A stretch of DNA of 64,000 bases from positions 769 through 64,768 of the forward strand of contig JAUQPZ010000002.1 of NCBI GenBank assembly GCA_030550155.1. Direction: 5' to 3'. Under the pieces are notes generated by a model. That model was not told where the DNA came from and searched no databases. It was given only the letters and a program-made list of their open reading frames with translations. The stretch comes from Thermoproteota archaeon. Its GTDB lineage: Archaea; Thermoproteota; Nitrososphaeria_A; Caldarchaeales; Calditenuaceae. Of this stretch, positions 24,392 to 24,507 are shown piece by piece. Positions within the stretch are counted from its first letter, which is position 1; each line of letters begins with the position of its first letter. The translations under genes and the position numbers were made by a program.

Positions 24392-24507
24392 GCGGCGGTA
24401 GTCTAGCCTGGTAGGACACCAAACACCCCTAAGGGTGTGTGGAGGCCTGCCATCCGGGCCTTTGGGTAGAGCGCTGGTGGTCGCGGGTTCAAATCCCGCC
24501 CGCCGCA
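24392..24507 (+). tRNA. tRNA gene of 116 nt with an unresolved intron architecture; isotype undetermined
   Basis: Perfect acceptor stem GCGGCGG/CCGCCGC plus discriminator A. Canonical D-arm (TA-GTCT-AGCCTGGTA-GGAC) at the 5' end and T-arm GCGGG-TTCAAAT-CCCGC at the 3' end. The middle holds about 40 nt in excess, including a second D-arm-like block (GGTAGAGCGC). No anticodon arm could be placed with a single canonical intron. Confidence 0.65.

Follow-up and report, generated by a model that had tools for sequence, protein, structure and literature searches.

A tRNA-Gly(GCC) gene with two introns, one of them in the anticodon stem, in a Caldarchaeales genome

The 116-nt locus described here lies in a contiguous stretch of 64,000 nucleotides (the window) and is very probably a functional tRNA-Gly(GCC) gene, the precursor of which would contain two protein-spliced introns of the bulge-helix-bulge type. 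This reading draws on what was observed of the structure and isotype of the gene, of its intron boundaries and motif geometry, and of conservation and covariation. One intron occupies the canonical site 37/38 and the other a non-canonical site, 29/30, which gives exact positions to the multiple introns, one of them non-canonical, that the original prediction had put forward. Multi-intron tRNA genes of archaea are already well known, and the find is thus real but ordinary.

Table 1. Positions of the tRNA-Gly(GCC) gene, its parts and its neighbours in the window
Feature	Positions	Strand	Length	Description
Putative archaeal promoter (BRE + TATA box)	24354-24370	+		conserved block
tRNA-Gly(GCC) gene	24392-24507	+	116 nt	two introns
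Exon 1	24392-24421	+	30 nt	acceptor 5' strand, D-arm, position 26, C27 C28 A29
Intron 1	24422-24444	+	23 nt	AACACCCCUAAGGGUGUGUGGAG; positions 29/30, 5' strand of anticodon stem
Exon 2	24445-24452	+	8 nt	GCCUGCCA; G30, C31, loop positions 32-37, anticodon GCC
Intron 2	24453-24471	+	19 nt	UCCGGGCCUUUGGGUAGAG; canonical 37/38 site
Exon 3	24472-24507	+	36 nt	C38, GCUGG, UGGUC, T-arm, acceptor 3' strand, discriminator A
tRNA-Ser(CGA)	24566-24681	-	116 nt	Rfam 37.5 bits
tRNA-Ser(CGA) intron	24615-24644	-	30 nt	canonical 37/38
tRNA-Ser(GGA)	24754-24839	-		intron-free; Rfam 61.5 bits
cbf5 (pseudouridine synthase)	24858-25896	-		two overlapping ORFs called
cbf5 mRNA intron	25637-25652	-	16 nt	ACCUUGAGAGGGGGAG; strict bulge-helix-bulge

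Exons, introns and the mature tRNA

The gene has the layout GCGGCGG-UA-GUCU-AGCCUGGUA-GGAC-A-(59 nt)-UGGUC-GCGGG-UUCAAAU-CCCGC-CCGCCGC-A. The acceptor stem of 7 bp (GCGGCGG/CCGCCGC), the D-arm (GUCU-AGCCUGGUA-GGAC), the variable loop UGGUC and the T-arm (GCGGG-UUCAAAU-CCCGC) are all located where they had been predicted; the discriminator is A, and CCA is absent from the encoded 3' end. The whole gene scored 48.5 bits against the Rfam model RF00005 (gathering score 29, E = 2.6e-07), with model positions 1-71 matched and 53 nt in the anticodon arm skipped. In the Rfam search no further tRNA-Gly was found in the 64-kb window. Six independent assemblies of the species all have the identical gene sequence, which shows that the gene is not an assembly artefact.

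We enumerated every reduction of the 59-nt middle to a 17-nt anticodon arm. None of the 18 single deletions produced five stem pairs, the best giving 4/5 pairs and the non-canonical loop GUAGAGC, so that, as had been proposed, one intron at 37/38 does not explain the gene. When two deletions were allowed, 114 solutions with 5 stem pairs were obtained, and intron placement is consequently impossible from stem pairing alone. What fixed the exon/intron boundaries of the window gene was the comparison with positional orthologues and a related gene that contain 0, 1 or 2 inserts.

The relatives were collected by scanning archaea, one genome per species, with the 5' exon as the query; two of its acceptor positions were allowed to vary. 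Very diverse archaea yielded more than 119 loci, and every one is a tRNA-Gly gene (GCC, UCC or CCC). The 74-nt gene of a Nitrososphaeria MAG (L036) has no introns and reads A-CCAGC-CUGCCAC-GCUGG-GGGUC through the anticodon arm. The 93-nt genes of an uncultured archaeon (L041) and a Nitrososphaerota MAG (L118) have intron 1 only; they read ACCA, then 19 nt of intron, then GCCUGCCAC-GCUGG, with CUGCCAC-GCUGG uninterrupted. Both inserts are present in a Ca. Calditenuaceae MAG (L040, 115 nt) and in a MAG labelled "Thermoproteota" (L106, 114 nt). L040, L041, L106 and L118 are positional orthologues, having in common with the window either the ABC-transporter genes (62-83% protein identity) or the cbf5-cmk-secY cluster (87% identity for SecY). 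The tRNA-Gly gene of a MAG labelled C. subterraneum (L069) has no introns.

The same scan turned up many tRNA-Gly genes with this 5' exon in DPANN archaea (Micrarchaeota and related MAGs) in which long inserts follow the anticodon or interrupt the T-loop (L014, L017, L026, L056, L062, L064, L083, L085, L090, L102, L116 and others), some of them so long that no 3' end was found within 140 nt. These inserts agree with the known intron richness of those lineages. Two tRNA-Gly genes with the same 5' exon occur on a single contig in L008/L083 (JAQTMQ010000001.1), L026, L062, L085 and L116; the copies are spaced about 115-290 bp apart in the last four cases and several kb apart in L008/L083, where both contain the same T-loop insert. 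The pairs suggest that intron-containing genes have been duplicated.

Default ARAGORN did not call the gene in the window. After intron 1 alone had been removed, ARAGORN independently found exactly the 19-nt intron 2 (uccgggccuuuggguagag), and after both introns had been deleted it returned a canonical tRNA-Gly(gcc) of 74 nt. Removal of intron 2 alone led to a spurious tRNA-Leu(AAG) in intron mode, a call that was ruled out by the orthologue comparison. The ARAGORN check that had been recommended for this gene thus gave tRNA-Gly(gcc) once the introns were removed, whereas the raw gene was either missed (default) or called as a tRNA-Pro(GGG) (intron mode). The spliced anticodon arm, CCAGC-CUGCCAC-GCUGG, has a 5-bp stem, a 7-nt loop, U33 and a purine at 37, and the spliced arms are identical to those of the intron-free tRNA-Gly(GCC) of relatives. 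Archaeal glycine identity resides in the anticodon GCC (C35, C36), C2-G71, G3-C70 and A73, and all of these elements are found in the sequence of the predicted tRNA. The isotype, which had been considered impossible to call from the sequence, is therefore Gly(GCC) by ARAGORN on the spliced form and by the relatives. The statement that GCUGG has no CCAGC partner upstream was correct in that there is no intact copy, but the partner does exist, split by intron 1 into CCA and GC.

A putative promoter lies upstream of the gene. The sequence TTTATA at 24361-24366 ends 25 nt upstream of the mature 5' end, and the block TAGAAT(A/T)TTTATACAGG, set between diverging flanks, keeps its spacing from the gene in each of the five positional orthologues. 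Judged by the archaeal TATA consensus, the block looks like a BRE/TATA promoter.

Splice motifs and the order of intron removal

The gene was scanned for motifs having a 4-bp central helix and two 3-nt bulges, with cleavage after the second bulge nucleotide. The scan yielded 25 candidates; a shuffled sequence is expected to contain about 2 strict motifs, and about 0.26 motifs with at least 3 central, at least 4 inner and at least 4 outer pairs. Because such motifs arise by chance, they serve here as support that is useful together with the orthologues, and not as proof on their own. The motif found at the junctions of intron 2 was strict and that at the junctions of intron 1 was relaxed.

Intron 2 has all four central pairs (C32-G, U33-A, G34·U and C35-G), an inner helix of 4 bp (CCGG/UUGG) and the bulges C-A↓U and A-G↓C38, in which the arrow denotes cleavage. 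Its outer helix is the anticodon stem, which amounts to 3 bp in the primary transcript and grows to 7 bp on removal of intron 1. The intron strand opposite CUGC is GUAG in the window, and GCGG and GCAG in L040 and L106, with 4/4 pairs kept; the central helix is preserved by one-sided changes in three orthologues.

The motif of intron 1 has 3/4 central, 6 inner and 7 outer pairs. Its bulges, C28-A29↓A and A-G↓G30, are separated by a central helix in which C25-G, A26-U and C27-G are paired and A24 is mismatched with G (A24×G). The inner helix, ACACCC/GGGUGU, contains the hairpin CACCC-cuaa-GGGTG that had been pointed out in the middle of the gene and that proved to be real. The outer helix pairs UGGUAGG, from the D-loop and the 3' strand of the D-stem, with CCUGCCA of exon 2. 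With only three of the four central pairs, intron 1 falls short of the strict motif, which requires a 4-bp central helix, and only the relaxed forms that have been described for enzymes of the (αβ)2 type (PMC4090602) accommodate it. The relaxed form is seen throughout the relatives, in which the bulges CA↓A and AN↓G are invariant and the inner helix ranges from 3 to 6 bp. All of the distinct intron-1 variants (17/17) dissect in one register, and 92% of the cells in alignment A1 are paired, compared with 27-42% for slid controls. In the inner helix, 3/4 pairs are changed on both sides (A-U to G-C, C-G to A-U, U-A to C-G), and the three central pairs are invariant across the variants. A24, opposite intron nucleotide -3, pairs as A-U in 2/17 variants and faces C in most relatives. 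The outer helix is pairable in every variant; however, it is composed of nucleotides that are invariant in the mature tRNA, and its conservation is for that reason uninformative about whether it forms.

A scan of metagenomes with the 17-nt exon 1/intron 1 junction pattern, a query too short to be specific, gave 100 matches, which were mostly random coding sequence and included only about 20 tRNA genes. The scan uncovered a second tRNA-Gly(GCC) family (GCGGTCGTCG…, the GCGGTCG family) with an intron at the same 29/30 site, represented by the metagenome contigs L144, L147, L150, L157, L161, L174, L176, L180, L190, L196, L202, L207 and L225. Most members have an additional intron of 21-28 nt in the variable loop, after position 45, with a strict bulge-helix-bulge motif and the central helix CUGG/CCAG; it is absent from L158, L164 and L211. 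Our guess is that this family is thaumarchaeal.

Folded without constraints, the precursor has a minimum-energy structure (-57.2 kcal/mol) that includes the outer and inner helices of intron 1 and does not reproduce its central helix. The nearest-neighbour model favours a CCA/UGG register over the bulge-helix-bulge register by about 5.5 kcal/mol. In the GCGGTCG family, which has C or U opposite C28, the CCA/UGG register does not survive, and we kept the bulge-helix-bulge register because it is the only one that is conserved in both families.

The boundaries in Table 1 were weighed against other ways of reading the same letters. In the enumeration, five stem pairs and a canonical loop are also obtained for a gene of the same isotype with shifted boundaries, if intron 1 is placed at 28/29 (24421-24443; stem CCGGC, including a G·U pair) or intron 2 at 38/39 (24454-24472; U38). 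We think that such shifts are very unlikely, as orthologues that lack the intron in question have CCAGC and CUGCCAC, with A29 and C38, the bulge-helix-bulge register predicts exactly 29/30 and 37/38, and ARAGORN puts intron 2 at the identical site. The output of ARAGORN in intron mode (-i) on the unspliced gene, a tRNA-Pro(GGG) that has a long extra arm and a single intron of 30 nt at 32/33, uses a CCAAA/UUUGG stem that occurs among the 5-bp solutions. This model was rejected because its UUUGG strand falls within intron 2 and does not occur in the syntenic L041 and L118. It would also require an extra arm resembling that of class II, a feature not known in tRNA-Pro, the motif scan lists no bulge-helix-bulge motif at its intron borders, and the exon-1 sequence was found only in Gly tRNAs; we assign it almost no probability.

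A tRNA pseudogene or decaying duplicate, having canonical ends and a scrambled middle and never being processed, would be in keeping with the failure of default ARAGORN to call the gene. Such a remnant is extremely improbable, given that the spliced form is a perfect cloverleaf with arms as in the intron-free tRNA-Gly(GCC) of relatives, that the intron helices are kept by compensatory changes across species, that the promoter element is conserved upstream in five orthologues, and that the six assemblies have the identical gene, in a window without another tRNA-Gly. The original prediction had also offered, as a fallback, a partly duplicated or circularly permuted segment, for which the block GGTAGAGCGC speaks in that it looks like a second D-arm. 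The block is indeed present, but it is the 3' end of intron 2, the central-helix strand GUAG that pairs with CUGC, followed by the start of exon 3; its sequence changes freely from one orthologue to another (GGGCGGAACGC, AGCAGAGCGC), and genes that lack intron 2 do not have it. All three exons follow one another in colinear 5' to 3' order in one contiguous stretch of 116 nt, with neither a 3' half upstream nor pieces at separate loci as in permuted or split genes, and both of the odd blocks are intron helices. A duplication or permutation has, in our view, virtually no chance of being correct.

For the tRNA-Gly(GCC) gene with introns at 29/30 and 37/38, a pathway from precursor to tRNA can be proposed. 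Transcription would probably start near the mature 5' end, from the conserved TATA/BRE element, and what is presumably the archaeal splicing endonuclease would cut at two pairs of 3-nt bulges. The motif of intron 1 would require an alternative fold of the precursor, in which UGGUAGG of the D-arm is paired with CCUGCCA of exon 2. The motif of intron 2 would reuse CUGC of exon 2 and would gain the full anticodon-stem outer helix only after the loss of intron 1. The two motifs overlap on the exon-2 nucleotides CCUGC and are therefore mutually exclusive, from which we infer sequential splicing, probably with intron 1 removed first. In this order the 8-nt exon would stay tethered and would not be set free as a separate piece. 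An RNA ligase would then join exon 1, the anticodon exon and exon 3 into the 74-nt tRNA, and CCA, since it is not encoded, would be added after the exons are joined. That one intron can block the next motif, so that introns need to be removed iteratively, was noted for tRNAscan-SE 2.0 (PMC8450103), and iterative removal is what the overlapping motifs of the window gene imply.

One could envision a broader scenario, which strikes us as possible but, taken as a whole, unlikely. The 29/30 intron of tRNA-Gly(GCC) may be old and vertically inherited, common to Caldarchaeales and a second, probably thaumarchaeal, lineage, and not a recent insertion. Its motif would need the D-arm to unfold in order to pair with the anticodon region, and this, together with the overlapping intron 2 motif and the 8-nt exon, would impose an obligatory order, intron 1 and then intron 2, that acts as a built-in folding checkpoint.

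Neighbouring genes

The tRNA-Gly gene forms a three-tRNA cluster with tRNA-Ser(CGA) and tRNA-Ser(GGA). The tRNA-Ser(CGA) gene is convergent with the Gly gene, a AAATTTTT run (24544-24551) lying between them, and was matched by ARAGORN in intron mode only; the central helix of its intron is 3/4 by hand inspection. The two tRNA-Ser genes, which are adjacent, have the acceptor stem and the T-arm in common.

A further intron of the bulge-helix-bulge type is present in cbf5. Its motif has 4/4 central pairs and a 6-bp outer helix, GCGGGA/UCCCGC. Without the 16-nt insert, cbf5 encodes a single 341-aa protein in which the catalytic motif GHGGTLD-PAVSG is restored, the insert splitting the codon of the catalytic Asp as G/AT. 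G/AT is the published site of the crenarchaeal cbf5 pre-mRNA introns of Desulfurococcales and Sulfolobales (PMC2738675); the survey reported there found none in Cenarchaeum, Nitrosopumilus and most Thermoproteales. In L118, cbf5 has a 19-nt insert in the same codon. A cbf5 intron in Caldarchaeales may be unreported, and PMC3082918 makes no mention of one.

Host lineage and relation to known multi-intron tRNAs

With 60-87% protein identity, the genes around the locus match those of a Ca. Calditenuaceae MAG and of Nitrososphaerota MAGs. Ca. Calditenuaceae is part of Ca. Caldarchaeales, within Nitrososphaerota, and this synteny of the flanking genes places the host, a hot-spring archaeon, in Caldarchaeales ("Aigarchaeota") and not in Thermoproteales, with whose multi-intron tRNA genes the original prediction had compared the gene.

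The nearest comparison is within the same order. In Ca. Caldiarchaeum subterraneum, 13 tRNAs contain introns and 3 of these are multi-intron (PMC3082918), namely tRNA-Leu(UAA), Gln(CUG) and Thr(GGU) (Nunoura 2011, PMC3082918; Sugahara 2012, PMC3293823); this organism is also reported to have non-canonical intron positions and a heterotetrameric endonuclease (PMC3082918; PMC3293823). Like the window gene, its multi-intron tRNAs have several bulge-helix-bulge introns in a mixture of canonical 37/38 and non-canonical sites. Unlike the window gene, none of the three is Gly(GCC), and the non-canonical sites named for that organism are in the D-, V- and T-arms, whereas that of the window gene is in the anticodon stem (29/30). 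In Thaumarchaeota and Crenarchaeota, α2β2 enzymes and relaxed hBH/HBh' sites have been described (PMC4090602), and according to PMC5829648, non-canonical introns are cut by the (αβ)2 and ε2 enzyme types only. Non-canonical tRNA introns of the Thaumarchaeota type, from a phylum related to that of the host, have separate models in tRNAscan-SE 2.0 (PMC8450103).

In Thermoproteales, tRNA-Pro(UGG) of Pyrobaculum islandicum has introns at 25/26, 37/38 and 56/57 (Sugahara 2007/2008, as cited in PMC4090602), and genes of the order have up to three introns. These genes have the same architecture as the window gene and presumably the same mechanism (bulge-helix-bulge or relaxed HBh'/hBH motifs and an (αβ)2 endonuclease). 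Thermoproteales is, however, a different phylum-level lineage, and the resemblance is one of kind and not of clade membership. Fujishima is said to have described, in 2009, a tri-split tRNA-Gly of Caldivirga maquilingensis, the pieces of which are joined via bulge-helix-bulge-like junctions. That tRNA, like the one studied here, is broken at two points, one of them 37/38, but it is made from three separate genes joined in trans, whereas the window has three contiguous exons in one 116-nt gene. The accounts of PMC3082918, PMC3293823 and PMC4090602 list no Gly(GCC) gene that has introns at 29/30 and 37/38.

The Caldarchaeales lineage is already known as rich in multi-intron tRNAs, and the window gene leaves the current understanding of archaeal tRNA splicing unchanged. 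Its value is mostly practical: tools without a search for non-canonical introns miss or mis-type such genes. Since default ARAGORN misses this one and intron mode miscalls it as Pro, MAG annotations can seem to lack tRNA-Gly(GCC). The syntenic orthologue series with 0, 1 or 2 introns is useful for the study of intron gain and loss, and the anticodon-stem intron site, being common to a second, distinct metagenomic tRNA-Gly(GCC) family, is of modest specialist interest. Finally, the two splice motifs that would compete for one 8-nt exon make this gene a simple, testable case of ordered tRNA splicing.
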